Shown: piece after piece, positions 1,933 to 18,581 of the stretch | Layout of the letters: every line of letters starts with the position of its first letter | Numbering within the stretch: position 1 is the stretch's first letter | Source: Calditrichaceae bacterium | GTDB lineage: Bacteria > Calditrichota > Calditrichia > Calditrichales > JBFXGD01 | Assembly: GCA_050178385.1 (NCBI GenBank) | Contig: JBFXGD010000044.1 | Coordinates: forward strand, 3,864-22,444 | Direction: 5' to 3' | Length of the DNA: 18,581 nucleotides | Translations under genes and position numbers: made by a program | The notes under the pieces: model-generated | The model's database searches: none | Told to the model about the DNA's origin: nothing | What the model saw: the letters and a program-made list of their open reading frames with translations, nothing else

Positions 1933-3384
1933 ATGCAGATAGATAATTATTTAAAAAAGTATTTCAAATTTGAATCGTTTCGAGGACAACAAAAAGCAAT
2001 CATTGAACACCTGATTAACAAAAAACACGCCCTGGTAATCATGCCTACCGGATCAGGAAAATCGATACTTTATCAGCTGCCGGCGCTTATGCTGCCCGGC
2101 TTAACGGTTGTCATTTCTCCCTTAATCGCTCTTATGAAAGATCAGGTGGACAGCCTTATAAAGAAAAATATCGATGCTGCCTTTATCAATTCATCTTTAG
2201 GAAAAAAAGAGAGGGAAGAAAGATACAGGAATATTGAAAATGGGCACTATAAAATGATATATGTGACTCCGGAAAGGTTTAGAAAAACCGAATTTCTGGA
2301 TGTGCTTTCCCGACGGGAAATCAGTCTTCTGGCGGTAGATGAAGCGCATTGCATAAGCCAGTGGGGACATGACTTCAGGCCGGACTATACCCGTATCAGG
2401 GAGTTTCGGAAGCTTATGCATGATCCTTTAACGATCGCGCTGACCGCTACAGCCACCCCCGCGGTACAGGCTGATATCATTAGACAATTGGGACTCCGGG
2501 AGAATGAGATTCGACTCTTTCATGAGGGAATCGACCGCCCGAATCTGTTCTTGGATTACAGGGATCTCTGGGGTGAAGATGAAAAACTAAAAGAAATATT
2601 AGAGATTGTGGAAAACAATCCTGGCAGCGGAATAGTCTATTTTGTGTTAATCAAAGATTTAATGCGGATGAGTGAGCTGCTTCATACAAAAAAACGGCCG
2701 CATCTGGTTTATCACGGCGATTTAACAGCGCCGGAAAGAAAAAGGATTCAAAATGAATTCATGAGAAAAGACAATAATCTTATTCTCGCTACGAATGCCT
2801 TCGGGATGGGAATCGATAAAGAATCGATTCGTTATGTGATCCACGTGCAAATACCGGGTTCACTGGAAGCATATTACCAGGAAATTGGAAGGGCGGGGAG
2901 AGATGGAAAGAAATCGGTCTGCACGCTGCTCTATGATGAACAGGATCTGAATATTCAGCTGGAATTCATGCGCTGGAACAATCCTACTGCAGAATTTTAT
3001 GACCGCGTGTATCATCTGCTGCTTTCAGATATAGAGCGCGTGAATGGCGAAGGACTCGATTATTTAAAGGAGCAGATGACCTATAAGAATAGGCGTGATT
3101 ATCGCGCGGAAACCGCCTTGGCGATTTTAGAGCGGTATGGGGTGATTGAAGGCAGCATTGAGCAAAAAAATATAACGGTTGTTTCCGAACTTCCCGACGC
3201 GCTTAGTGAACAGGAGTTACTCGATCATAAATTAAAAAATGAACAGGACAAATTATATAAAATGATGCTCTATACTAAATTAAGTACCTGCCGCAAAGCC
3301 TATATTCATGAATATTTTGGTTTGGAGCATCCGGATGAATGTATGACTTGTGACAATGACATAAAAATGACTAAGAGCGATTGA
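1933..3384 (+). CDS. recQ: RecQ-family ATP-dependent DNA helicase, short form without HRDC
   Basis: It has motif I 'MPTGSGKS', 'DEAHCISQWGHDFRPDY', 'LTATAT', 'ATNAFGMGIDK' and 'QEIGRAGRDG', plus a C-terminal Zn-type segment 'CRKAYIHEYFG...CMTCDND'. Confidence 0.93.
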   Translation: MQIDNYLKKYFKFESFRGQQKAIIEHLINKKHALVIMPTGSGKSILYQLPALMLPGLTVVISPLIALMKDQVDSLIKKNIDAAFINSSLGKKEREERYRNIENGHYKMIYVTPERFRKTEFLDVLSRREISLLAVDEAHCISQWGHDFRPDYTRIREFRKLMHDPLTIALTATATPAVQADIIRQLGLRENEIRLFHEGIDRPNLFLDYRDLWGEDEKLKEILEIVENNPGSGIVYFVLIKDLMRMSELLHTKKRPHLVYHGDLTAPERKRIQNEFMRKDNNLILATNAFGMGIDKESIRYVIHVQIPGSLEAYYQEIGRAGRDGKKSVCTLLYDEQDLNIQLEFMRWNNPTAEFYDRVYHLLLSDIERVNGEGLDYLKEQMTYKNRRDYRAETALAILERYGVIEGSIEQKNITVVSELPDALSEQELLDHKLKNEQDKLYKMMLYTKLSTCRKAYIHEYFGLEHPDECMTCDNDIKMTKSD

Positions 3385-4258
3385 CAAAAAACACTGAAAG
3401 AATGATAAGCCCAGCCCCGGAAATAGCAAGAGGGTCGGGGAACTGATCCCAGATCAATAGCCCCCATCCGATTGAAAAAAGGACATTCATATACCCGACA
3501 TTAGTCGCTCTGGCGGCTGTTTCACGGTGCAGGCCGCGGGTCATAAATACCTGCGCGATCTGGGTGGCTATCCCGACACCAAACAGCGCCAGCCACTCCG
3601 GGATGGTCGGCCAGACAAAGGAATATGTTGTATCAGGCAGGGAAACCAGGGTCGCGAAACCGGAAAAATACAGGATAATGGTGAATTCGTGGTCAGATTT
3701 TCCGAGAACCCTCACCGTTACATAAGCGATGGAAGTACAGACCGCGCCGCTTAGTCCGATTATGGTCGCGTAGGGATCAAGCGAAAATGTCGGTTTGATA
3801 ATCAGTATAATTCCCAAAAATCCAACGAGATACAATCCCCATTGTTTGTTTGTGTTTACCTCCTTCAATATAAACGGCGCGATTAGAGCGGTAATCAACG
3901 GATTTGTATATAATAAAAGTGTTGAATCGGCTATGGGCAGGACGGTCAGGGTATAAAAGAAAGCCGATAAACCGAAAAACCCAAAAACCGCCCTTATGAT
4001 TAGTAATCCGCGGCGCTTGCCGGTAATCGAAATATGACCCTTTCTGATGAGGTAGAAAGTCATCAGAAAAGCTAATAATGATCTGATAAACACAATTTCC
4101 TGAGAGGGCAGCCTTGAGCCGGATAATTTGACAAAAACGGCCATCACGCTGTAAAAGAAAGCGGCGGCGATCATAAGTCTGATTCCGGGTGTGAAGGCAA
4201 ATTGCCGCTGTAGATTATTTAGGATTTTAGTTCTGAACATATGTGTTTTTCTGTACAA
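3371..4258 (-). CDS. DMT/EamA-family transporter
   Basis: There are about 10 hydrophobic helices in two EamA-like repeats ('APFILKE', 'GIILIIKP'). The start is uncertain because downstream ATGs exist. The 3' end overlaps the convergent recQ by 14 nt. Confidence 0.88.
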   Translation of the reverse strand: MYRKTHMFRTKILNNLQRQFAFTPGIRLMIAAAFFYSVMAVFVKLSGSRLPSQEIVFIRSLLAFLMTFYLIRKGHISITGKRRGLLIIRAVFGFFGLSAFFYTLTVLPIADSTLLLYTNPLITALIAPFILKEVNTNKQWGLYLVGFLGIILIIKPTFSLDPYATIIGLSGAVCTSIAYVTVRVLGKSDHEFTIILYFSGFATLVSLPDTTYSFVWPTIPEWLALFGVGIATQIAQVFMTRGLHRETAARATNVGYMNVLFSIGWGLLIWDQFPDPLAISGAGLIILSVFFVNRS

Positions 4259-4375
4259 ATTAAATCATGAATATACATGCTTTTTTGTATCAAATCAGCA
4301 AAATAATATGAAATGATTTTTGTTGCCGGAATGAGGGATGAATGATATTCGGCCAAATGATATGACGAATGTTTC

Positions 4376-5593
4376 TTAGTTCTTAAGGCTGAAATTTTTC
4401 TCAGCCATTTCCGCGATTATTTTACCAATGCTGATGGACGCTGTCGCGGCCGGGGATGGGGCATTCAGAACATGAATCATGTTTTCGGCTTCAACAATGC
4501 GAAAATCATCGACCAGGCTGCCGTCAGGCGTTAAAGCCTGAGCCCTGACTCCGGCGCCTCCCGGAGAAATATCGGATTCTGTGATTTCAGGTATGAGTTT
4601 TTGCAGCGCCTTAACAAAGGCATGTTTATAAAACGACCGGTAGAATTCACCGAGTCCGGTTTTCATGTATCTGGCCGCGAGACGGATAAAACCCGGGTAA
4701 GTGAATGTATCAATAGTATCTTTTAAGGAGAAGCTTGTCTTCTGGTATCCTTCCCGTTTGAAGGAAAGAACGGCATTGGGCCCGGCTTCAATTCCTCCGT
4801 GAATCATTCTTGTGAAGTGAACACCCAGAAAAGGAAATGAAGGATCGGGGACGGGATAAATCAGATTGTTAACGAGATGGTGTTTCTCAGAATTTAACTT
4901 ATAATATTCCCCGCGGAAAGGGACAATCATCAGACCGGGATTGATCCCACAGATTTTGGCTATCCGGTCAGACTGTAATCCGCCGCAATTTATGAGATTT
5001 ATGGCCCTCACATCGCCGCTGGTGGTTTTGATGATCAGCTCTCCGGAATAACGGCCAAGCTCCGTGAATCTCGCATTGGTGATGATATCATTTCCTGCTT
5101 CTCGAATCACTCTTGCAAATGCTTCGCATACATCTACATAATCAACAATTCCGGTTTCAGGGACCAACAGGCCGGCTATTCCTTCCACATGGGGTTCATA
5201 TTCTCTAAGTTCTTCGCGGTTTAATTTTTTGAGACCTGTAAGGCCGTTAGCGAGTCCGCGTTTTTCCATATCATCCAGAATGGCAAGTTCTTTTTCACTG
5301 GCAGCCACAACAACTTTGCCGCATTTTTCATGAGGAATTTCATGACGCTGACAAAATTCATACATAGCCTTTCGCCCGGTAACACAATTTTTGGCTTTTA
5401 GTGAACCGGGTTTGTAATAAAGACCCGAGTGAATGACTCCGCTGTTATTACCTGTCTGATGACGCGCAATATGCTGCTCGGCCTCAATCACAACGATTTT
5501 CATATTGGGGATTTGGGACAATACCATCGCAGAAGCGAGACCGACAATGCCGCCGCCAATAATTGCCACATCATATTTCCCGGATGCGTCCAA
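4376..5593 (-). CDS. lhgO: L-2-hydroxyglutarate oxidase/dehydrogenase (FAD-dependent)
   Basis: It has the FAD motif 'IIGGGIVG', 'HQTGNNSGVIHSGLYYKPGSLKA', 'IYPVPDPSFPFLGVHFT', 'AGVRAQA' and 'HVLNAPSPAATAS'. The start is TTG, preceded by GGAG. Confidence 0.93.
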   Translation of the reverse strand: MDASGKYDVAIIGGGIVGLASAMVLSQIPNMKIVVIEAEQHIARHQTGNNSGVIHSGLYYKPGSLKAKNCVTGRKAMYEFCQRHEIPHEKCGKVVVAASEKELAILDDMEKRGLANGLTGLKKLNREELREYEPHVEGIAGLLVPETGIVDYVDVCEAFARVIREAGNDIITNARFTELGRYSGELIIKTTSGDVRAINLINCGGLQSDRIAKICGINPGLMIVPFRGEYYKLNSEKHHLVNNLIYPVPDPSFPFLGVHFTRMIHGGIEAGPNAVLSFKREGYQKTSFSLKDTIDTFTYPGFIRLAARYMKTGLGEFYRSFYKHAFVKALQKLIPEITESDISPGGAGVRAQALTPDGSLVDDFRIVEAENMIHVLNAPSPAATASISIGKIIAEMAEKNFSLKN

Positions 5594-5650
5594 TCCATTC
5601 TCCAGTTTCTTTTAAAGATTGTGTGACATGGCTTTACATAATCTTAGTAA

Positions 5651-6466
5651 TTAATTCCTGTTCATCAGTTTTTCGACATCAATGAGACCGATCGGCTCGG
5701 TGCAATCTTCGTCTTCAAAACGCAGATAGACGATATCATTAAAAATATCAATTTTATCCACAAACGCCTTGCCCCTTTTTGTGTACACCAATGTTTCGAG
5801 GGGCGGGAATTTTTTGAGAGATGCCTCGTAAAAACCTTTTTCAAATAACAGGCAGCATTTCAGCCTGCCGCAGACACCCGTGATTTTTGACGGATTTAAC
5901 GGGATATTTTGTTCCTTGGCATATTGTGTTGAGATCGGTTCGAAGTCTTTTATGAATGAAGAACAGCAAAGCGGTTTGCCGCAAACACCAAGGCCGCCTA
6001 TCCGGCGGGCTTCGTCCCGGACGCCGATCTGTCTCAGCTCAATCCTGGTTCGGTAATATGCCGCCAGATCCTTTACCAGTTCGCGGAAATCAACCCGTTT
6101 GTCACTTGTGAAATAGAATGTCAGCTTGTTATGATCATATTGATATTCCACATCAACAAGCTTCATATTTAATCCGTGCTTTTTGATTTTCTCGCGGGCG
6201 ACTACAAAACCCTGGGCTTCCTTCCTCCGGTTTTCGTCCAATTCCTTTAAGTCTTCCGGGCCTGCTTTGCGGATCAGAACTTTTGGTTTACCCTTAATTT
6301 CGCTAAGGGTGACCAGTCTTCCAACCTTACTTATCGTGCCCATATCTATACCTTTATCCGCCTCAACGATAGCGTAATCACCAGGTTTTAGCTTTATTTC
6401 CTTGGGATTAAGATAGGGGGCGCGTCTATTCCCTTTGAAAGATATTTCTACCAATTCCGGCGTCAT
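5651..6466 (-). CDS. ricT: PSP1-domain protein, RicT/YaaT family (Fe-S binding)
   Basis: It has the PSP1 motif 'KLTFYFTSDKRVDFRELVKDLA...TRIELRQIGVRDEAR' and the Cys clusters 'CGKPLCC' and 'CGRLKCC'. It overlaps holB via ATGA at 6463-6466. Confidence 0.92.
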   Translation of the reverse strand: MTPELVEISFKGNRRAPYLNPKEIKLKPGDYAIVEADKGIDMGTISKVGRLVTLSEIKGKPKVLIRKAGPEDLKELDENRRKEAQGFVVAREKIKKHGLNMKLVDVEYQYDHNKLTFYFTSDKRVDFRELVKDLAAYYRTRIELRQIGVRDEARRIGGLGVCGKPLCCSSFIKDFEPISTQYAKEQNIPLNPSKITGVCGRLKCCLLFEKGFYEASLKKFPPLETLVYTKRGKAFVDKIDIFNDIVYLRFEDEDCTEPIGLIDVEKLMNRN

Positions 6467-7581
6467 ACCGTACTCTCCTTCATTCTAATCTGTGTTTTGA
6501 TCAGATGATTTTTTATTTCGATGGCCAGGTTGACTAGAGTCGATGCCGTATGTGCATTATGAGTTATATCAATATATGCTTCTTCTGCCAATTCAATCAA
6601 CAAATTAAAATCAGCTTTTTTATAAATTTCCACGAATTTTTCTATTTTCATTGTAAAATCTATATTTATAAAATCACTGTTTTCATTGAGTATTGAGTAA
6701 TGCAGAGAGTCCCTCAACCATAGAATAAGTAAATTTAATATTTCCAAAACAACATTCTTGTCCCGGTTTTTGATTATTTCATCAACCGTATTTGATACCT
6801 GCAGCATATTATTTGATGCGATGGTCGCTAAAAACTTGTAAACCAACTCACGCTGCGATTCAGATCCCGAATGAAGAAGTGAGAAGACCCGCTTGACATT
6901 ATTTTGAGCGATTCGGATCAATGGAATTAAATCAATCTCAGTTTTTTCGTAACGTTTGATGATGGGAATGATTTGTTCGTCTGAGAATTTCGGGAAAAAA
7001 ATCAGCTGACATCTGGATCGGATAGTCTCCAGTAAACTGTTACGATCATTTGTAGTCAGAATTATTATCAGGTTTTCAGGAGGCTCTTCCAGCAGTTTCA
7101 GGAACGAGTTGGTGGCTTCTCGCGACATATAATCAGCCTCTGAAATAATAAACACTTTTTTAGATGCCTCATAGGGGGCGTATTTTGATTCGATCTTTAA
7201 TTCACGGATGGTATCGATCGGTATGTTCTTGTGACCGGAGATTTCAACATTCTTGTATATGTTTTTTCTTTTTTCCGCAATGATTTTTGCAACCAGTTCA
7301 TTGGCTTTCTCAGGTGTTTTCTGTTTTACAACAGGAAATATAATCTTTATGTCCGGGTGATTAATGTGATTGATTTTGATACAGGATGGGCATTCCCCGC
7401 ACGGGCGTCTGTCTTCGGAAGAACAGTTTAACGCCTTGGCAAGCTCAAAAGCGAAAGCTTCCTTACCGGTTCCGTCATCACCGTAGAACAAGTAGGCGTG
7501 AGCAAGACGGTTGCTGTTGATGCTGTTAATAAAAAATCTTTTTACTCTATCCTGAACGAATGAGTTCTCAAAGTATTTCAT
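6463..7581 (-). CDS. holB: DNA polymerase III subunit delta'
   Basis: It has 'RLAHAYLFYGDDGTGKE', the Zn module 'C..PCGECPSC', 'HPD', 'NSFLKLLEEPP' and the SRC motif 'TIRSRC'. It sits in the conserved position upstream of ricT. Confidence 0.92.
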   Translation of the reverse strand: MKYFENSFVQDRVKRFFINSINSNRLAHAYLFYGDDGTGKEAFAFELAKALNCSSEDRRPCGECPSCIKINHINHPDIKIIFPVVKQKTPEKANELVAKIIAEKRKNIYKNVEISGHKNIPIDTIRELKIESKYAPYEASKKVFIISEADYMSREATNSFLKLLEEPPENLIIILTTNDRNSLLETIRSRCQLIFFPKFSDEQIIPIIKRYEKTEIDLIPLIRIAQNNVKRVFSLLHSGSESQRELVYKFLATIASNNMLQVSNTVDEIIKNRDKNVVLEILNLLILWLRDSLHYSILNENSDFINIDFTMKIEKFVEIYKKADFNLLIELAEEAYIDITHNAHTASTLVNLAIEIKNHLIKTQIRMKESTV

Positions 7582-12987: not shown

Positions 12988-13074
12988 CTGATATGTGAAA
13001 ATATATTTTGTTTGGATGCATAGGAAATCATACTTAACTTGGATTGTAAAAAGTACAATTATTATGGAATAACA

Positions 13075-13854
13075 ATGAAAGTAAATATAGATAAATTACA
13101 GGGCATGGATCGTTTGTTGTATGTCATGAAACGTCTGCGCAAGGATTGTCCATGGGATGCCGGGCAAACGCATCAAAGCCTAAAAAAGTACTTACTTGAA
13201 GAGACGTATGAAGCGTTGGAGACAATAGATAATGAACGATGGGACCTGTTGAGTTCCGAATTGGGGGATATATTGCTTCAAATTGTATTTCATAGTGAAA
13301 TAGCGAGTGAAAATCGAAATTTTAAATTTGAAGATGTGGTTCACAATATTACAAAAAAGATGATTGACCGGCATCCGCATGTTTTTGGAGATAAAAAATT
13401 AAAAACCGCGTCAGATGTCAGTCAGAATTGGGAGCATTTGAAAGTAACCGGAGAAAACAGGGAATCAATTCTCAGCGGTATTCCAAAAAACTCCCCCGCT
13501 CTGCTGCAGGCGCAGCGATTACAGGAAAAAGCCGCGACTGTAGGATTTGAATGGGATGAAGTGGAATCAGTAATAGAAAAAATTGATGAAGAACTACAGG
13601 AGTTCAAAGCGGCGTTCCAGGCGATGGAAACAAAAAATGTTGAACAGGAATTTGGAGATCTGCTTTTTAGTCTGGTTAACCTGAGTCGTTATATTAATAT
13701 AGATTCTGAGGATGCATTGCGTAAAACAAACGCGAAATTTGTGAAGCGGTTTAAACATATTGAAAATCAGTATCACAATAATCCAAAGGCGATGAAGAAT
13801 GCGAGCCTCGATGAGCTTGACCGGCATTGGACAGATGCCAAAAAGAATGAATAG
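13075..13854 (+). CDS. mazG: Nucleoside triphosphate pyrophosphohydrolase MazG (tandem domain)
   Basis: It has 'LRKDCPWD', 'EETYEA', 'ELGDILLQIVFH', 'RHPHVFG' and a second domain 'EELQE...EFGDLLF'. The likely start is ATG 13075. Confidence 0.94.
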   Translation: MKVNIDKLQGMDRLLYVMKRLRKDCPWDAGQTHQSLKKYLLEETYEALETIDNERWDLLSSELGDILLQIVFHSEIASENRNFKFEDVVHNITKKMIDRHPHVFGDKKLKTASDVSQNWEHLKVTGENRESILSGIPKNSPALLQAQRLQEKAATVGFEWDEVESVIEKIDEELQEFKAAFQAMETKNVEQEFGDLLFSLVNLSRYINIDSEDALRKTNAKFVKRFKHIENQYHNNPKAMKNASLDELDRHWTDAKKNE

Positions 13855-13865
13855 GTGGATTTGGG

Positions 13866-14900
13866 ATGCCGAATGACTATCTGAGTTCCCTGGGGTTGTA
13901 TGAAACACCCGAACAACTCCTGCAGGGCACAGGCAAATTTCTGAGTAAATATATGAAGTTGCGGAATTTTGTCCTTATGAAGCACCGCGTTCACCCGGAC
14001 CCATTTGTATGTTTGTTGAATCATTATGAAGACCTTGACCTGTCATTGACGCAAAATTCTCTAAAAAACTTCAATATTGATGTATGTCCTTACCAACCCG
14101 TGAAATATTTGGAAAATTATTATTGTTTCGGTGAAGGGGATTTCACAAAGAATGATGTCATATTCATAGTATCAAAAAATAAGATTCCGGAAAGCGTTAT
14201 TGATGTAATGAGATCTTATGATTCATTGAGTCGGCAATGCCGACAGGTGCGCGAGGCGGAAAAAATACAAAATCAGACAGAATATACAGGAATCATTTCA
14301 CAATTAATGCATGATGTCGCTTCATTGTTAAATCTCAGCCGGAATATCCAAAATCCGGACGAGTTGACAGAACGGATTCATTATCAGGAGAGGGCAAACA
14401 CCCGGCTGCTTCAGTATATACGGAAACCGGAATTATTTCTGACAGAAATCGGTGTTAATGAATTGATTTTGGATACCATCGCTCTCATGGAAATTTCTGC
14501 TGAAAAATTAAATCTGAAAATTAATTCTAACAGGGAGAAAATTCAGGTTGATGTGGAGCTTTTTTCAAAGGCCTTAATTGAAATTATTAAAAATTCAATC
14601 GAAGCGGTTGATAACGATTTATCCGGTATTTCAATCTCGGTCGATATGTTGTCTGCACTTTCTCCATTTAATAAAAAATCCTGGATGCGGTGCGAGATTC
14701 GTGATACGGGAAACGGTATTTCTGAAGATTTCAAAGAATTTGTCGGAACACCGTTTTTTACGACCGTGAAGAACAAAGGCCATACAGGGTTGGGACTCCC
14801 GATATCAGAGAAAATTATTAATGCCCATAAAGGCTATTTGGAAGTAAATTCAGTACATGGAAGTGGCACAGTCGTTACATTATACTTACCTTCTGATTAA
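13866..14900 (+). CDS. Soluble sensor histidine kinase
   Basis: It has the H-box 'QLMHDVASLL', N-box 'EIIKNSIEA', G1 'DTGNGI', F 'FFTT' and G2 'GHTGLGL'. No TM helix is evident, and the N-terminal ~140 aa are unassigned. Confidence 0.88.
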   Translation: MPNDYLSSLGLYETPEQLLQGTGKFLSKYMKLRNFVLMKHRVHPDPFVCLLNHYEDLDLSLTQNSLKNFNIDVCPYQPVKYLENYYCFGEGDFTKNDVIFIVSKNKIPESVIDVMRSYDSLSRQCRQVREAEKIQNQTEYTGIISQLMHDVASLLNLSRNIQNPDELTERIHYQERANTRLLQYIRKPELFLTEIGVNELILDTIALMEISAEKLNLKINSNREKIQVDVELFSKALIEIIKNSIEAVDNDLSGISISVDMLSALSPFNKKSWMRCEIRDTGNGISEDFKEFVGTPFFTTVKNKGHTGLGLPISEKIINAHKGYLEVNSVHGSGTVVTLYLPSD

Positions 14901-14906
14901 GATATT

Positions 14907-16256
14907 ATGAAAGATTCACAGCACAAAATTCTTGTTATTGAAGATAACGCGGTGTGGCAGCAGAGTTACCGAAAATGGCTCGGAACCGGTTATGTTTTTG
15001 AATTTGCCGCTGATATTTCTTCCGCAGAGGAGGCGTACATAAGCTTTCTTCCCGATATAGTCCTGCTGGATCTCAGTCTTCCGCAGGCTAAGCAGGGGCT
15101 CACGATACTGGATTTTATTATCGGCAGAGGGCGGGATTCCAAGGTCATCGTTATTACCTCCTCGCAGGATCATCAAGACGCTCTTGAAGCGCAGAAGCGG
15201 GGCGCGTATGCTTATTTTTTTAAGGGGGAAAATATTGAGGACGAATTACCCTTTCTTGTCAAGCGGGCTACTAAAATGCAAATTCTGGAAAGAGAAAACA
15301 GAGAACTAAGACGAAAATTGACAGGTACCCTGCAATATGAAGGCATTGTTGCGGTCAGTAAACAGATGCAGAGCATATTGCAATTGGTTGAACAGATCAG
15401 GAATACCAATGAACCGGTGCTTATAACGGGAGAGTCGGGTGTTGGTAAGGAGATTATCGCAAAACATATTCATAAGCGCAGCAGAATATCAAGAAGGCCG
15501 TTTGTCGCCATAAATTCAGCTGCTTTGCCTGAGAATCTTCTTGAAAACGAATTGTTCGGCCACGAAAGAGGCGCTTTTACCGGCGCCAACGAATTAAAAA
15601 AGGGGCAGTTCGAACAAATAAATGGAGGGACTCTATTTTTGGATGAGATCGGGGAGCTTCCTCAGTCAATGCAGGCAAAAATTCTTAGAGTCCTTCAGGA
15701 AAAAAAGTTTTTTAGATTAGGCGGCACAAAGGAAATGGTTGCTGATTTTCGCCTGATCGCAGCGACGAACAGTAATCTCAGCGAAGAAGTAAAAAGAAAA
15801 AATTTTCGTGAAGATTTATATTATCGTTTGAATGTCATTCCTATTCATATCCCACCACTTCGTGAGCGACCGGATGATATACCGGCCCTGGTCAATCACT
15901 TCACCGGTTACTATTGTAAAATGAATAGACTACCTGTACCTAAGTTGGATGCGGCGCTGGTCGCGTATCTTTCAAAACTGGAATGGAAAGGTAATATTCG
16001 TCAGCTTGAGAACACGCTCATCCGCATGCTCGTGCTGAATCTGAAAGTTCTTGGGATAAAGGATATTCCGCAGGATATTCAGAATGAAGTGAATCCTATT
16101 ATTCAGAATGCCCTGGTTAATAAATATTCTTTGGAACAACTGACAAATATGTATGCGAATCTTGTATATGAATATTCGGGAAAAAACAAAAAAGCTGCCT
16201 GTGAATTTTTACAAATTAACTATAGAACATTAATGACCCGCCTTCGAAAATCCTAA
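14907..16256 (+). CDS. Sigma-54-dependent response regulator (REC-AAA+-Fis HTH; NtrC/PrsR-like)
   Basis: It has the REC motifs 'LVIED...VLLDLSLP', Walker A 'GESGVGKE', an intact GAFTGA, Walker B 'LFLDEIGE', 'FREDLYYRLN', 'WKGNIRQLEN' and the C-terminal HTH 'NKKAACEFLQINYRTL'. Confidence 0.95.
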   Translation: MKDSQHKILVIEDNAVWQQSYRKWLGTGYVFEFAADISSAEEAYISFLPDIVLLDLSLPQAKQGLTILDFIIGRGRDSKVIVITSSQDHQDALEAQKRGAYAYFFKGENIEDELPFLVKRATKMQILERENRELRRKLTGTLQYEGIVAVSKQMQSILQLVEQIRNTNEPVLITGESGVGKEIIAKHIHKRSRISRRPFVAINSAALPENLLENELFGHERGAFTGANELKKGQFEQINGGTLFLDEIGELPQSMQAKILRVLQEKKFFRLGGTKEMVADFRLIAATNSNLSEEVKRKNFREDLYYRLNVIPIHIPPLRERPDDIPALVNHFTGYYCKMNRLPVPKLDAALVAYLSKLEWKGNIRQLENTLIRMLVLNLKVLGIKDIPQDIQNEVNPIIQNALVNKYSLEQLTNMYANLVYEYSGKNKKAACEFLQINYRTLMTRLRKS

Positions 16257-16308
16257 TTGTAATAATTGCACTTTTCCTACATTATGAATTGTAATTTATG
16301 CAATTCAT
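16255..16308. promoter_or_regulatory. Tandem dyad enhancer (UAS)-like sites
   Basis: Site 1 is AATTGTA-ATAAT-TGCACTT (16255-16273) and site 2 is AATTGTA-ATTTA-TGCAATT (16287-16305). They are offset by exactly 32 bp. Site 2 extends to ATGAATTG-N9-CAATTCAT (16284-16308). Confidence 0.7.
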
Positions 16309-16325
16309 GACGGCATATTTTACCC

Positions 16326-16338
16326 TAATATGTTGTTT
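16326..16338 (-). promoter_or_regulatory. IHF-like binding site
   Basis: The minus strand reads AAACAACATATTA, one mismatch to WATCAANNNNTTR. It has an adjacent A-tract and lies between the dyads and the -24/-12 element. Confidence 0.35.
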
Positions 16339-16396
16339 TTTTTGAGATTATCAATATTAGTGAGTTATGTTGTTTAGAAATAATAACTTACGCTGA

Positions 16397-16412
16397 TGGC
16401 ATGCTAATTGTA
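16397..16412 (+). promoter_or_regulatory. Sigma-54 (-24/-12) promoter
   Basis: The sequence is TGGC-ATGCTAA-TTGTA against the consensus TGGC-N7-TTGCW. The spacing is exact, with GT instead of GC at -12, about 100 bp downstream of dyad site 2. Confidence 0.65.
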
Positions 16413-16442
16413 TTAACAGAATACAAAATAAGGTTGGAGCCG

Positions 16443-16658
16443 ATGAAGCCGGAAGATATAATCAATAGTAATCTGAAAATCAGCATTCAGGATGATGAAA
16501 GCGGGAGAAGATATTACAGTGTGCGTCTTGTTTTTTCTGATGAGGATATACTAACCGTATATAGAGACAATATGAGTGAATTAATGAGTGATTTGCCTCA
16601 TATTATCGGTTCGGCAATGCAAGCCCGGTTAATTTCAGATGGTTTGTTAACAGTTTAG
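16443..16658 (+). CDS. Hypothetical 71-aa acidic protein
   Basis: ATG 16443 is preceded by an AGGTTGGAG RBS. The ORF-track start at 16401 lies inside the sigma-54 promoter, so it was rejected. Confidence 0.75.
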   Translation: MKPEDIINSNLKISIQDDESGRRYYSVRLVFSDEDILTVYRDNMSELMSDLPHIIGSAMQARLISDGLLTV

Positions 16659-16663
16659 ACCAA

Positions 16664-16672
16664 GGGGGGGGG
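16664..16672 (+). repeat. G9 homopolymer directly before a start codon
   Basis: The sequence is CAA-GGGGGGGGG-ATG (16673). Confidence 0.85.
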
Positions 16673-17044
16673 ATGAAAGTTTTTATTTGTGAACAGGATC
16701 AGTTGAGAGCAAAATCTATGCAGGATATACTCGGGGTTTATAACTATACGGTAGTAACTATAAATAAACAAACAGATCTCATAAAAGAGGTTACGAGTCA
16801 TAGGCCTGCTGTCATTATTATGAATGAATGTTTCGCAAAAAACTCAGGATCTGATACGCTGAATTCTTTACGGCGTGATCCGGTAACAGCAGAAATCCCG
16901 GTTATATTTATAGGAAAAGATCACCGGTTTCTTGATGATGGAGATGCCTTGACTGAGTTTGTGGAGGAACCCATTAAGATAAAGAATCTTCGTCATTATA
17001 TCGACAGGTGGACAATATTCAAGAGTTTATATATAAAGCATTAA
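16673..17044 (+). CDS. Single-domain receiver (CheY-like) protein, atypical/pseudo-receiver
   Basis: It has the REC fold pattern 'MKVFICEQD...RPAVIIMN...SGSDTLNSLRRDPVTAEIPVIFIG...FVEEPI'. The phospho-Asp, Thr/Ser and Lys positions are all substituted. Confidence 0.82.
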   Translation: MKVFICEQDQLRAKSMQDILGVYNYTVVTINKQTDLIKEVTSHRPAVIIMNECFAKNSGSDTLNSLRRDPVTAEIPVIFIGKDHRFLDDGDALTEFVEEPIKIKNLRHYIDRWTIFKSLYIKH

Positions 17045-17045
17045 A

Positions 17046-17138
17046 ATGGAAATCAGTTACCTTTTAATACATATGTTTTTCGTGTCCCTTTGGTTTGTTT
17101 TCAAAGGAATCAATATCAAGGATGATGTTTTTCATTAA
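17046..17138 (+). CDS. Candidate 30-aa hydrophobic small protein (MEISYLLIHMFFVSLWFVFKGINIKDDVFH)
   Basis: The ATG is 1 nt after the pseudo-receiver stop (TAA-A-ATG). It has a ~16-residue hydrophobic stretch and ends before the terminator. It is below the ORF-track cut-off and has no separate RBS. Confidence 0.3.
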   Translation: MEISYLLIHMFFVSLWFVFKGINIKDDVFH

Positions 17139-17159
17139 AACTGATTGGTTAATATCAGT

Positions 17160-17200
17160 AAAGCTTTAAGATGGAATACCCATCTTAAAGCTTTTTTTTT
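17160..17200 (+). terminator. Rho-independent terminator
   Basis: A perfect 15-bp stem AAAGCTTTAAGATGG / CCATCTTAAAGCTTT with loop AATAC, and a T-run from 17192 to 17200. Confidence 0.9.
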
Positions 17201-17225
17201 ATCTGTTTTTTAATTATCTTGACAG

Positions 17226-17693
17226 ATGATTATAGGGTTGATTTCAGATACGCACAATATTCTGCCGGAAAAAATATTTAGTATATTTGAAAATGCAGAT
17301 TATATCATCCATGCCGGTGATGTCGGCTCTAATGATATATTAGTTAATCTGGAAACCATTGCGCCGGTTAAGGCCGTTTACGGAAATATGGATTCATTCC
17401 CTTTGGTTAGCGATTATAAAAGAATGGAGATATTTAACCTGGCGGGATGGTCATTCTGTTTAATTCATTCGATAAGCAGCACCAGATCTTTTGCATATGA
17501 ATTATTTAAAATGCAGAAGAAAATAGATATTGTAATCTTTGGCCACACCCATCAAAAAGAGCACACGGTTTTTAATGGAATTCAATTTATCAACCCGGGT
17601 AGTGCTTCAAAGCCAAGACACTCGGTTAAAGGATCTGTGGCCCTATTACAATTAAACAAAAATGATATAGAAGTTCGATTTGTTCATATATAA
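17226..17693 (+). CDS. YfcE/MJ0936-family metallophosphoesterase
   Basis: It has 'ISDTH', 'IHAGDV', 'AVYGNMD', 'GHTH' and 'INPGS'. Confidence 0.92.
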   Translation: MIIGLISDTHNILPEKIFSIFENADYIIHAGDVGSNDILVNLETIAPVKAVYGNMDSFPLVSDYKRMEIFNLAGWSFCLIHSISSTRSFAYELFKMQKKIDIVIFGHTHQKEHTVFNGIQFINPGSASKPRHSVKGSVALLQLNKNDIEVRFVHI

Positions 17694-17959: not shown

Positions 17960-18581
17960 TTAATTTTTAAAAAAACGTTCAATTGTATGTGAAAAGAGAT
18001 TGCTGTATTCTGTTAATAAATTTTTATGTTCATCTTTGTACTTCCCCGCAATTTCGTGTTCAAGGGTAATCATACCAACAGCCTCTGAACCGAGGCGGAT
18101 AGGCACAGAAAGAAACGAACGCAATCCATGATTGGATTTTTCCTGCTTTGAAAATCGCGGTATAAAGTAATCGCCTTTATCAATATTATCTATTAAATAA
18201 GGTTTATTTTTTAGTATTACCCACCCGTTTAAGCCATCATCAAGAAGAAATTGATAGCCTCTTCTGAATGGATCGTCAATACCGACAGCTTTATTAATTA
18301 CTGCTCTGTCCGTCTGTCCCCCTTCAATGTCCTTTGTGGCGATAGTTAATTTGGACGCTTCAAATTCAGTTGCCAGAAAGTCGACAAAAAAATCAATACA
18401 TTCATTGAAATTTCTTCCGGTATTTAGATATTTTGCAAGCTTGAGATTACGTCCATCAAGATCATACCTGAGAAGAGTACTTTTATACTGAAGTTTTGTT
18501 GTCACTGCCGACCGGGTGTTTTGATTAATTTGCTGCAAAACCGGCGCATCTTCCAAATTGAAAAAACTGGGTGTATCTGCG
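17960..18581 (-). CDS. GAF-domain protein, C-terminal part (5' end beyond the window)
   Basis: It has the GAF-like 'GLNGWVILKNKPYLIDN' and 'RSFLSVPI...AVGMITLE'. The reading frame stays open from the TTG at 18556 to the window edge. Confidence 0.8.
   Translation of the reverse strand, partial: ADTPSFFNLEDAPVLQQINQNTRSAVTTKLQYKSTLLRYDLDGRNLKLAKYLNTGRNFNECIDFFVDFLATEFEASKLTIATKDIEGGQTDRAVINKAVGIDDPFRRGYQFLLDDGLNGWVILKNKPYLIDNIDKGDYFIPRFSKQEKSNHGLRSFLSVPIRLGSEAVGMITLEHEIAGKYKDEHKNLLTEYSNLFSHTIERFFKN

Follow-up and report, generated by a model that had tools for sequence, protein, structure and literature searches.

A predicted sigma-54-dependent two-component switch of Calditrichota and its adjoining mini-operon of three small proteins

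Kinase, activator and small genes of the module

The window, meaning the whole 18,581-nt stretch of Calditrichaceae bacterium contig JBFXGD010000044.1 that was analyzed, was examined by open reading frame (ORF) listing and Pfam scans. Positions 13866–17200 comprise a module in which genes for a soluble histidine kinase and an NtrC-type sigma-54 activator (bacterial enhancer-binding protein, bEBP) are followed by a 186-nt gap and then by three successive small genes for an acidic 71-aa protein, a pseudo-receiver and a 30-aa peptide (Table 1). The gap, which extends from the activator stop codon to the start of the 71-aa gene, contains two palindromes and a predicted sigma-54 promoter. The locus was compared with 36 relatives on contigs labeled Calditrichota (37 loci in total) and with a phylum set of 86 genomes. 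The order mazG-kinase-activator-71-aa gene-pseudo-receiver was kept in all 20 wide loci and in the distant families f5, f7, and f8 as well, in which mazG also lies 5′ of the kinase gene. Among the short loci (n = 20) the pseudo-receiver gene always followed the 71-aa gene and the activator gene came before in 19, the twentieth contig beginning at the small gene. Identities outside the genus in the wide loci were 57–73% for the activator, 46–62% for the pseudo-receiver, 44–59% for the 71-aa protein, and 28–38% for the kinase.

The kinase is composed of a poorly conserved ~135-aa N-terminal domain, a dimerization and histidine phosphotransfer (DHp) region that includes His149, and then the catalytic domain. 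His149 is located within an SQxxHD motif, and the N, G1, F, and G2 boxes (N243, D280xGxG, FFTTxK, and GxGL, respectively) were conserved across 12 aligned kinases in which S145, Q146, H149, D150, N243, G282, G284, FTT-K, and G308/G310 were invariant. The protein did not match the Pfam HisKA model, residues 1–135 matched no Pfam or NCBIfam family, and no hydrophobic segment was seen on reading the translation. Identity to orthologues outside the genus was only 24–38%. The kinases of families f5 and f7 are 671–677 aa long (L081:6952-8967 and L087:7399-9432), and in the f7 version the His box is preceded by a GAF domain. Remodeling has therefore affected the sensor part, with the activator and target unchanged, the 344-aa form being that of the window's lineage.

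The activator showed strong matches to PF00158 (Sigma54_activat, E 3.6e-69, 232 bits against a cut-off of 20.2), AAA_lid_14 (E 9.8e-18), and the receiver family PF00072 (E 3.2e-14, 53.5 bits against a cut-off of 30.2). The receiver has the E12-D13 pair and the acceptor Asp55 in the motif LLDLSLP. ERGAFTGA, the Walker A motif GESGVGKE, and the Walker B motif LFLDEIGE were read from the translation. The C-terminal HTH_8 match was weak (residues 427–448, E 0.004, 17.3 bits against a 22-bit cut-off), and its INYRTL motif is kept in relatives. An activator orthologue lies adjacent in 35 of the other loci, and identity to these was 52–94%. The description in the initial annotation of a histidine kinase followed by a receiver-AAA+-helix-turn-helix activator with an intact GAFTGA motif is borne out by these domains (HATPase_c, E 2.6e-16, for the kinase), with the helix-turn-helix as a candidate. 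The best NCBIfam matches were AtoS (E 3.4e-28) and the PEP-CTERM response regulator, AtoC, and NtrC models (E about 1e-104 to 1e-106), and the activator scored below the equivalog cut-offs of the last three (TIGR02915, 355.5 versus 502.6 bits; AtoC, 351.8 versus 714; NtrC, 348.5 versus 558.6). As no NtrBC, AtoSC, or ZraSR equivalog cut-off was reached, the kinase and activator are classed on their sequences only as an NtrC-family system. The rpoN gene on which the initial annotation had made its proposal depend is present in the genome (Sigma54_DBD, E 4.1e-58, in a 490-aa frame on contig C97), together with about 25 sigma-54 activator genes.

All genes from mazG through the gene for the YfcE-type phosphodiesterase are co-directional. 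Only 11 nt separate mazG from the kinase gene and only 6 nt the kinase gene from the activator gene, and therefore these three genes probably share one operon that is headed by mazG. The circuit had been proposed to be self-contained, which applies only in part. The kinase, activator, control elements, and target do lie together, but in each of the 20 wide loci mazG comes before the kinase and activator genes.

Table 1. Positions of the genes and control elements of the module and of its flanking genes within the window
Feature	Position	Strand	Basis
mazG-type nucleotide pyrophosphohydrolase gene	13039-13854	+	PF03819 MazG, E 6.1e-38
Soluble histidine kinase gene, 344 aa	13866-14900	+	HATPase_c, E 2.6e-16
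NtrC-type sigma-54 activator (bEBP) gene, 449 aa	14907-16256	+	PF00158, PF00072, AAA_lid_14
Putative distal enhancer palindrome (upstream activating sequence, UAS 1), TTGTAATAATTGCAC	16257-16271	.	Invariant alignment columns
Putative proximal enhancer palindrome (UAS 2), TTGTAATTTATGCAA	16289-16303	.	Invariant alignment columns
T-tract in the enhancer-promoter interval, partly conserved as TTGTTTTT	about 16333-16343	.	Alignment consensus
Predicted sigma-54 promoter, TGGCATGCTAATTGTA	16397-16412	+	Alignment and 37-locus scan
Acidic 71-aa protein gene	16443-16658	+	Homologues
Pseudo-receiver gene, 123 aa	16673-17044	+	PF00072, E 1.2e-7
30-aa single-pass membrane peptide gene, MEISYLLIHMFFVSLWFVFKGINIKDDVFH	17046-17138	+	Coding signature
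Intrinsic terminator (15-bp stem 17160-17194, 5-nt loop, T-run to 17203)	17160-17203	+	Hairpin and T-run
YfcE-type phosphodiesterase gene	17226-17693		Listed in co-directional run

Paired palindromes and a predicted promoter in the intergenic region

UAS 1 begins one base past the TAA stop codon of the activator gene, departs from the consensus TTGYA-N5-TRCAA by one mismatch, and is centered 134 bp upstream of the −24 GG of the predicted promoter. UAS 2 lies 32 bp from UAS 1 with its center 102 bp upstream of the GG, and both palindromes are 15 bp in length. The −24 GG occupies positions 16398–16399 and the −12 dinucleotide, which reads GT, positions 16410–16411. The correctly spaced −24/−12 element that had been proposed therefore stands as regards the GG and the spacing, but not at −12, where GT replaces the GC of the canonical sequence (TGGCAT-N5-TTGT compared to TGGCAC-N5-TTGC). 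Transcription is predicted to start near 16422–16424.

Alignment of 19 intergenic regions yielded a mean column identity of 45%, yet TTG.A and CA in both dyads and TGG.A and TTG in the promoter were invariant. The invariant columns were T26, T27, G28, A30, C38, and A39 for UAS 1, T58, T59, G60, A62, C70, and A71 for UAS 2, and G167, G168, A170, T177, T178, and G179 for the promoter. A strict test was applied to the 37 loci in which two dyads with no more than one mismatch each had to lie 30–34 bp apart and 60–200 bp upstream of TGGYA-N6-TTG. The promoter pattern was present in 33 loci, and 31 of the 37 possessed paired dyads upstream and passed the combined test; five of the six misses were near-misses. 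Dyad spacing was 31–33 bp in the 31 passing loci, and for most loci of the window's order the distance from the center of the proximal dyad to the GG was 99–103 bp. Two dyads that start at the activator stop codon, as the initial annotation had described, accordingly occupy conserved columns, and their conservation with the −24/−12 element in orthologous loci, which it had regarded as decisive, was observed.

The segment between the palindromes and the promoter was unconserved apart from the T-tract. The IHF-like site that had been placed in this segment was not recovered: the IHF consensus WATCAANNNNTTR matched three times in the window and not once within 16257–16443, and only the partly conserved T-tract was found there. 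The T-tract may provide an intrinsic bend. The genome contains two genes of the HU/IHF family.

The alignment also bears on an alternative that is considered very improbable, namely that the palindromes belong to another regulator, such as a repressor, or are a mere mark of the end of the activator gene, that the operon is transcribed by read-through or from a sigma-70 promoter, and that TGGCA-N6-TTG is incidental. No terminator was found between the activator gene and the promoter, nor between the activator stop codon and the small genes, a weak sigma-70-like match (9/12) is situated at 16342–16371, the −12 dinucleotide is non-canonical, and binding by the activator is a prediction. However, this sole sigma-70-like match falls within unconserved columns and no conserved sigma-70 promoter was visible in the 19 aligned regions, whereas TGG.A and TTG were invariant with fixed spacing in all 19. 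Moreover, the distance from dyads to promoter remains within a few bp across families, as expected of enhancer action that depends on the face of the helix.

Natural rearrangements are informative in this respect. In two genomes (G063 and G065) the activator orthologue, which has 53% identity and is the only match at E 1e-120 or better, is located about 1.0 and 0.9 Mb from the operon, respectively. Both palindromes and the promoter remain with the operon in these genomes and none occurs after the activator gene. Thus, the palindromes and promoter appear to belong to the target and to be read in trans, which argues against read-through as the main drive; indeed, read-through from the activator gene is impossible in these two cases. 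The same elements also precede the pseudo-receiver gene directly in family f5 and in genome G002, which are without the 71-aa gene: the activator gene is followed by ~200 nt with the two palindromes and the promoter and then by the pseudo-receiver gene, an arrangement that likewise speaks against this alternative. The caution in the initial annotation over sigma-70 or read-through transcription is answered in part: no conserved sigma-70 promoter was visible in the alignment, but a terminator ahead of the promoter is missing. Overall, the wiring from kinase through activator, palindromes, and promoter to operon is judged to be very probable.

In the genomes scanned, the paired palindrome was confined to the module. 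Among 119 promoter-like matches (TGGYA-N6-TTGY) in the window's genome, two core dyads were positioned 40–220 bp upstream at this locus only. The strict double-dyad pattern TTGNA-N5-TNCAA-N15-19-TTGNA-N5-TNCAA was scanned in genomes G000, G002, G003, G065, and G082. It was found once in G003, once in G082, and in G065 once at the module plus at one site of a different, unrelated half-site type. The pattern was absent from G000 and G002, where one dyad carries a mismatch, and the reversed control produced no match in any of the five genomes. The proposal that the operon is a node in a cascade fits with the confinement of the paired dyad to this operon in the genomes scanned.

A candidate second target at G000:C57:1473-1600 on the minus strand (L066) was a gene for a 204-aa lipoprotein that is preceded by TGGCACACGCTTTGTA and, 57 bp farther upstream, by a single strict dyad. 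It was rejected as a conserved target: the right half-site of the dyad is lost in the same-genus genome, and the gene was detected in 3 of 26 genomes. The sigma-54-like promoter TGGCACACGCTTTGTA itself is kept in the same-genus genome and probably is served by another of the roughly 25 activators.

Products of the mini-operon

The 71-aa ORF, the pseudo-receiver, and the strong terminator of the initial annotation are all present in the sequence. At the positions that are characteristic of receiver domains, the 123-aa protein has Glu-Gln in place of Glu9-Asp10 of DivK, Asn51 for Asp53, Gly81 for Thr, and Glu99 in place of Lys105. At the Thr position, residues other than Gly also occur. In 37 sequences that represent all families, Asn occupied the acceptor position in 34 and Asp in three, and Glu-Pro replaced Lys-Pro in 36. 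The alpha-5 motif KIKNLRHYIDRWT is invariant (EP-KIKN-RH---RW--FRSLY), as is the alpha-1 surface. The structural model adopted a receiver fold with a predicted local distance difference test (pLDDT) score of 81, and the top structural matches were the DivK and FrzS receivers. As judged from these substitutions, the protein is a pseudo-receiver that would not be open to phosphorylation.

Full-length orthologues of the pseudo-receiver (E 7.5e-23 or better) were identified by profile search in 83 of the 86 phylum genomes. The remaining three genomes are 62–84% complete with best matches of E 8e-12 to 3e-9; generic receivers scored no more than 54 bits. Identity among pseudo-receivers was 29–93% compared to 24–71% for the kinases. 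The public names in this family were 'response regulator' or 'hypothetical protein' only, and by the names seen the family appears to be confined to Calditrichota. As an orthologue is present in 83 of 86 genomes and still stands behind the control elements where the 71-aa gene is absent, the pseudo-receiver seems to be the constant target of the circuit. An origin as a duplicate of the activator's own receiver was considered and dropped, as there was no similarity between the two (E 0.73).

In a single case, a second pair of 71-aa and pseudo-receiver genes (5025–5237 and 5254–5637) was found at 1827–5637 of L073 (G044:C1:61600-71600). The pair lies directly behind genes for a REC-LuxR regulator, kaiC (as two ORFs, 2711–3847 and 3850–4287), and kaiB (4351–4731; KaiB, E 1.5e-27), and is accompanied by no activator gene, palindromes, sigma-54 promoter, or membrane peptide gene. 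Cyanobacterial KaiB binds pseudo-receiver domains. As a general partner KaiB was rejected, since the window's 94%-complete genome contains no KaiB match and the link consists of one paralogous copy.

The start of the 71-aa gene was set by homologues at ATG 16443, which is preceded by GGAG. An alternative 85-aa frame (16401–16658) has its ATG inside the promoter and was rejected because the homologues place the start at 16443. The protein is acidic as counted from the translation, has 13 invariant columns, and was modeled by AlphaFold as a three-strand sheet with a C-terminal helix (pLDDT 83). It was detected in 39 of 41 relatives and, by profile search, in 51 of 86 phylum genomes: families f1–f4 and f6 gave strong matches and f7 and f8 weak ones, whereas f5 gave none (0/17). 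Even the weak matches of f7 and f8 are flanked by the activator and pseudo-receiver genes, and the palindromes and promoter are in place there. The protein matched no Pfam or NCBIfam family, and only 10 matches were obtained among 1.84 billion representatives, three of which are long repeat proteins that match over a short stretch. Structural searches with the model assigned no fold, as the best Foldseek matches against the PDB had E 0.027 (PX, Pur-alpha, and COMM domains), a wide VIA-align search gave a best Z of 5.2, which is inside noise (ribosome hibernation factors, Z 4.0–4.8), and the best ESM Atlas score of 0.82 was under the meaningful level. Prediction of a complex between the pseudo-receiver and the 71-aa protein from paired 20-row alignments, run without controls, scored 0.00 and carries no weight either way. 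The 71-aa protein would be an accessory, as one family (f5) and one further genome (G002) lack it.

Two other occurrences of the 71-aa sequence were noted. A second paralogue without a pseudo-receiver occurs at 6157–6536 on the minus strand of L100 (G034:C321). At the contig end it is preceded by a TTGTA-N5-TACAA dyad and a TGGCAC-N5-TTGC promoter of consensus sequence, and it heads genes whose products are large secreted proteins (207, 455, and 1351 aa). The longest of these has a tail that is taken to resemble a type IX secretion sorting motif. In addition, the C-terminal half of the protein (strand 3 and helix) is located behind unrelated N-terminal parts in the metagenomic proteins P0009 (105 aa) and P0010 (114 aa), one of which presumably resembles an ArsC/Spx-type CxxC protein in this N-terminal part. 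These may be real fusions or gene-calling artefacts.

The 'possible' 30-aa ORF of the initial annotation can be upgraded to a gene. Its ATG lies 1 nt past the pseudo-receiver stop codon, and hydrophobic ORFs of 29–39 aa that start −1 to +17 nt from that stop codon are present in the window and in 26 of the 36 other loci, including all 20 of L022–L041. A C-terminal motif, [FY][KR]G-x-x-[IVL][KR]DD, is common to 22 of the 37 loci. The peptide matched no Pfam or NCBIfam family. On the coding signature described below, the ORF is taken to be a real and conserved third gene that specifies a membrane peptide, a kind of product that usually is missed by gene callers. Its conserved charged tail would lie on the cytoplasmic side according to the positive-inside rule.

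The stretch 3′ of the pseudo-receiver gene could alternatively be a structured non-coding RNA. About 42 nt (17088–17135) are 85–100% identical in 13 other loci in which the neighboring proteins are only 50–60% identical, and codons for the same residue were more often identical in the 3′ half of the peptide gene (0.63) than in the C-terminus of the pseudo-receiver gene (0.49), with synonymous changes still present. Nevertheless, the frame was open in 21 of 21 sequences (29–34 aa, with the ATG 2–17 nt after the stop codon) whereas the other five frames were stopped in 16–21 of the 21. Differences at codon positions 1, 2, and 3 were 0.38, 0.23, and 0.55, respectively, so that third positions changed most and second positions least, and the N-terminal half diverged in sequence while its hydrophobicity was kept. 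Furthermore, RNAalifold detected almost no shared structure in 16 sequences (−0.37 kcal/mol, 4 pairs), and Rfam returned no match below E about 0.4–0.49 over 16200–17300. A structured RNA in place of a peptide gene is accordingly regarded as highly unlikely.

The operon ends at the intrinsic terminator, the stem of which is kept in the same-genus genome with a different loop. Hairpins with a T-run were recorded in 20 of the 37 loci in a crude scan. A short hairpin (CTGAT...ATCAG) at 17142–17161, between the peptide stop codon and the terminator, likewise has its stem kept and a completely different loop in the same-genus genome. Beyond the terminator, the gene for the YfcE-type phosphodiesterase recurs near the module across families. 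A gene on the minus strand (17960–18581) that is cut at the window end converges on the module and specifies a protein with a C-terminal GAF domain. A GAF-domain gene neighbors the module in many relatives; the one scanned in L081 (f5) specifies a 593-aa GAF-GAF-GGDEF protein.

Proposed circuit and comparison with known systems

In NtrC-family regulators, phosphorylation of the receiver frees the AAA+ domain to oligomerize, and the oligomer, bound to tandem upstream sites, uses its GAFTGA loop to remodel the closed complex of sigma-54. The module probably is a dedicated NtrB/NtrC-type switch of Calditrichota for which the adjoining mini-operon is the only recognizable direct target. A cytoplasmic cue would be perceived at the variable N-terminal domain of the soluble kinase, which would autophosphorylate on His149 and pass the phosphate to Asp55 of the activator. 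Activator oligomers would then assemble on both TTGYA-N5-TRCAA palindromes, which are separated by three helical turns and have their centers about 102 and 134 bp upstream of the −24 GG, and would use ATP and the GAFTGA loop to open the sigma-54 promoter. The resulting transcript of ~780 nt would specify the 71-aa protein, the pseudo-receiver, and the 30-aa peptide, and would end at the terminator hairpin. After translation, the pseudo-receiver as the constant effector would signal by its abundance through binding to a conserved partner, and the membrane peptide may tether the pseudo-receiver by way of its conserved tail (FKGxxIKDD).

For the final step, the reading of the pseudo-receiver as an effector that conveys the signal by its abundance through protein-protein binding is given about an even chance. 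More tentatively, and as a reading that is less likely than not, Calditrichota may possess an as yet undescribed signaling logic in which a sigma-54 two-component system with a single target converts a phosphorylation signal into the abundance of a non-phosphorylatable receiver. This receiver would be the true effector on a conserved partner, helped by the peptide and the 71-aa protein, and the pair of 71-aa protein and pseudo-receiver could be attached to other timing or signaling systems.

The principal alternative is that the mini-operon is a feedback device whose products act on their own kinase or activator, with the real output at other promoters that were missed. By analogy, ZraP acts on ZraS, CpxP on CpxA, PspA on PspF, and MgrB on PhoQ; the kinase is soluble here and hence within reach of cytoplasmic small proteins, targets with single or degenerate dyads could have escaped the scans, and the second dyad and sigma-54 promoter before genes for large secreted proteins in G034 point to extra targets in at least one genome. 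Conversely, the window's genome, G003, and G082 each have a single paired dyad, and a circuit with its own brake as the only target would have no output. Moreover, conservation of the pseudo-receiver (29–93% identity) far exceeds that of the kinase (24–71%), the sensor region of which differs between the 344-aa form and the 671–677-aa forms of f5 and f7 with the GAF domain, and the paralogous 71-aa and pseudo-receiver pair beside kaiC-kaiB has no activator nearby. The uniqueness of the paired palindrome in the scanned genomes therefore suggests that the small proteins are the output of the circuit and not merely a feedback brake, and a pure feedback role is considered unlikely.

Certain observations weigh against the proposed switch with a single target operon. 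Five near-misses and one outright failure were recorded in the strict test: the promoter of L072 reads TGGCG, that of L069 has CTGC at −12, the second dyad of L070 and of L087 carries two mismatches, the dyads of L067 are 41 bp apart, and the paralogous copy L073 is devoid of the elements. The −12 dinucleotide in the window is GT instead of the canonical GC, and relatives have TTGC, TTGT, or TTGA. The single strict dyad was not enriched across the genome (22 found compared to 25.7 expected), and therefore targets with single or degenerate sites would escape the scans; further, the window's genome is 94% complete in 320 contigs. The second site in G034 may be a second activator target in that genome or may derive from a second strain in the bin, and the regulon can be larger in some genomes. 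Basal read-through from the activator gene is possible because no terminator intervenes before the promoter, and the start site, the sigma-54 dependence, and the binding of the activator are predictions from the sequence. A weak hint of transcription comes from one 158-nt metatranscriptome contig with 99% or more identity, the sole RNA contig that covered any part of the operon. It matches 16542–16697, from within the 71-aa gene across the spacer to the start of the pseudo-receiver gene, but it extends only 25 nt into this second gene, could be DNA carry-over, and does not allow strand, start, or level to be read. Lastly, the pseudo-receiver lacks detectable similarity to the activator's own receiver (E 0.73) and its binding partner is only postulated.

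The regulatory half of the switch is textbook NtrC-type control for which the natural evidence is strong, as it includes a whole-phylum footprint, fixed geometry, and natural unlinking. The output half is less familiar: three small proteins that belong to no described family are the apparent sole regulon of a phylum-wide two-component system. Searches of the full-text literature revealed no description of the module, as judged from their listings. If the pseudo-receiver is the effector, the module would be a clean case in which a dead receiver domain signals by its dosage. The promoter, enhancer, and activator also offer a defined set for genetics in Calditrichota, a phylum that has been little studied.

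The known systems with the same domain order are AtoS-AtoC and NtrB-NtrC (glnAp2), in which tandem palindromic sites also lie ~100–140 bp upstream of a sigma-54 promoter. The half-site here is TTGYA, in contrast to the TGCACC type of NtrC, and the targets here are not metabolic enzymes. For the pseudo-receiver, the best fold matches were DivK and the FrzS receiver (Foldseek E about 1e-7, template modeling (TM) scores 0.74–0.79) with a sequence identity of only 17–23%. FrzS is described as not being phosphorylated, and proteins of this kind act by partner binding. Unlike DivK and FrzS, the pseudo-receiver family is marked by an invariant alpha-5 motif of its own, is restricted to Calditrichota as far as the names seen indicate, and is predicted to be under sigma-54 control.

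Conceptually, the closest counterparts would be ZraSR-zraP, LuxO-Qrr, and GlrR-glmY. In the ZraS-ZraR/zraP system of Escherichia coli, a kinase and an NtrC-family activator likewise adjoin their main target, a gene for a small non-enzymatic accessory protein behind a −24/−12 promoter with sites for the activator, and ZraS and ZraR were among the best NCBIfam matches, albeit far under the cut-offs (75 versus 479 bits and 258.9 versus 760 bits, respectively). ZraS is a membrane sensor whereas the kinase here is soluble, and ZraP is periplasmic and feeds back on ZraS. None of the products of the Calditrichota operon resembles ZraP: the pseudo-receiver is cytoplasmic, and it is joined by the acidic 71-aa protein and the membrane peptide. 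In LuxO-Qrr and GlrK/GlrR-glmY, a phosphorylated NtrC-type regulator likewise has only small regulators as its direct sigma-54 targets and constitutes a node in a cascade. The outputs of those systems are small RNAs, whereas those of the Calditrichota module are three small proteins.

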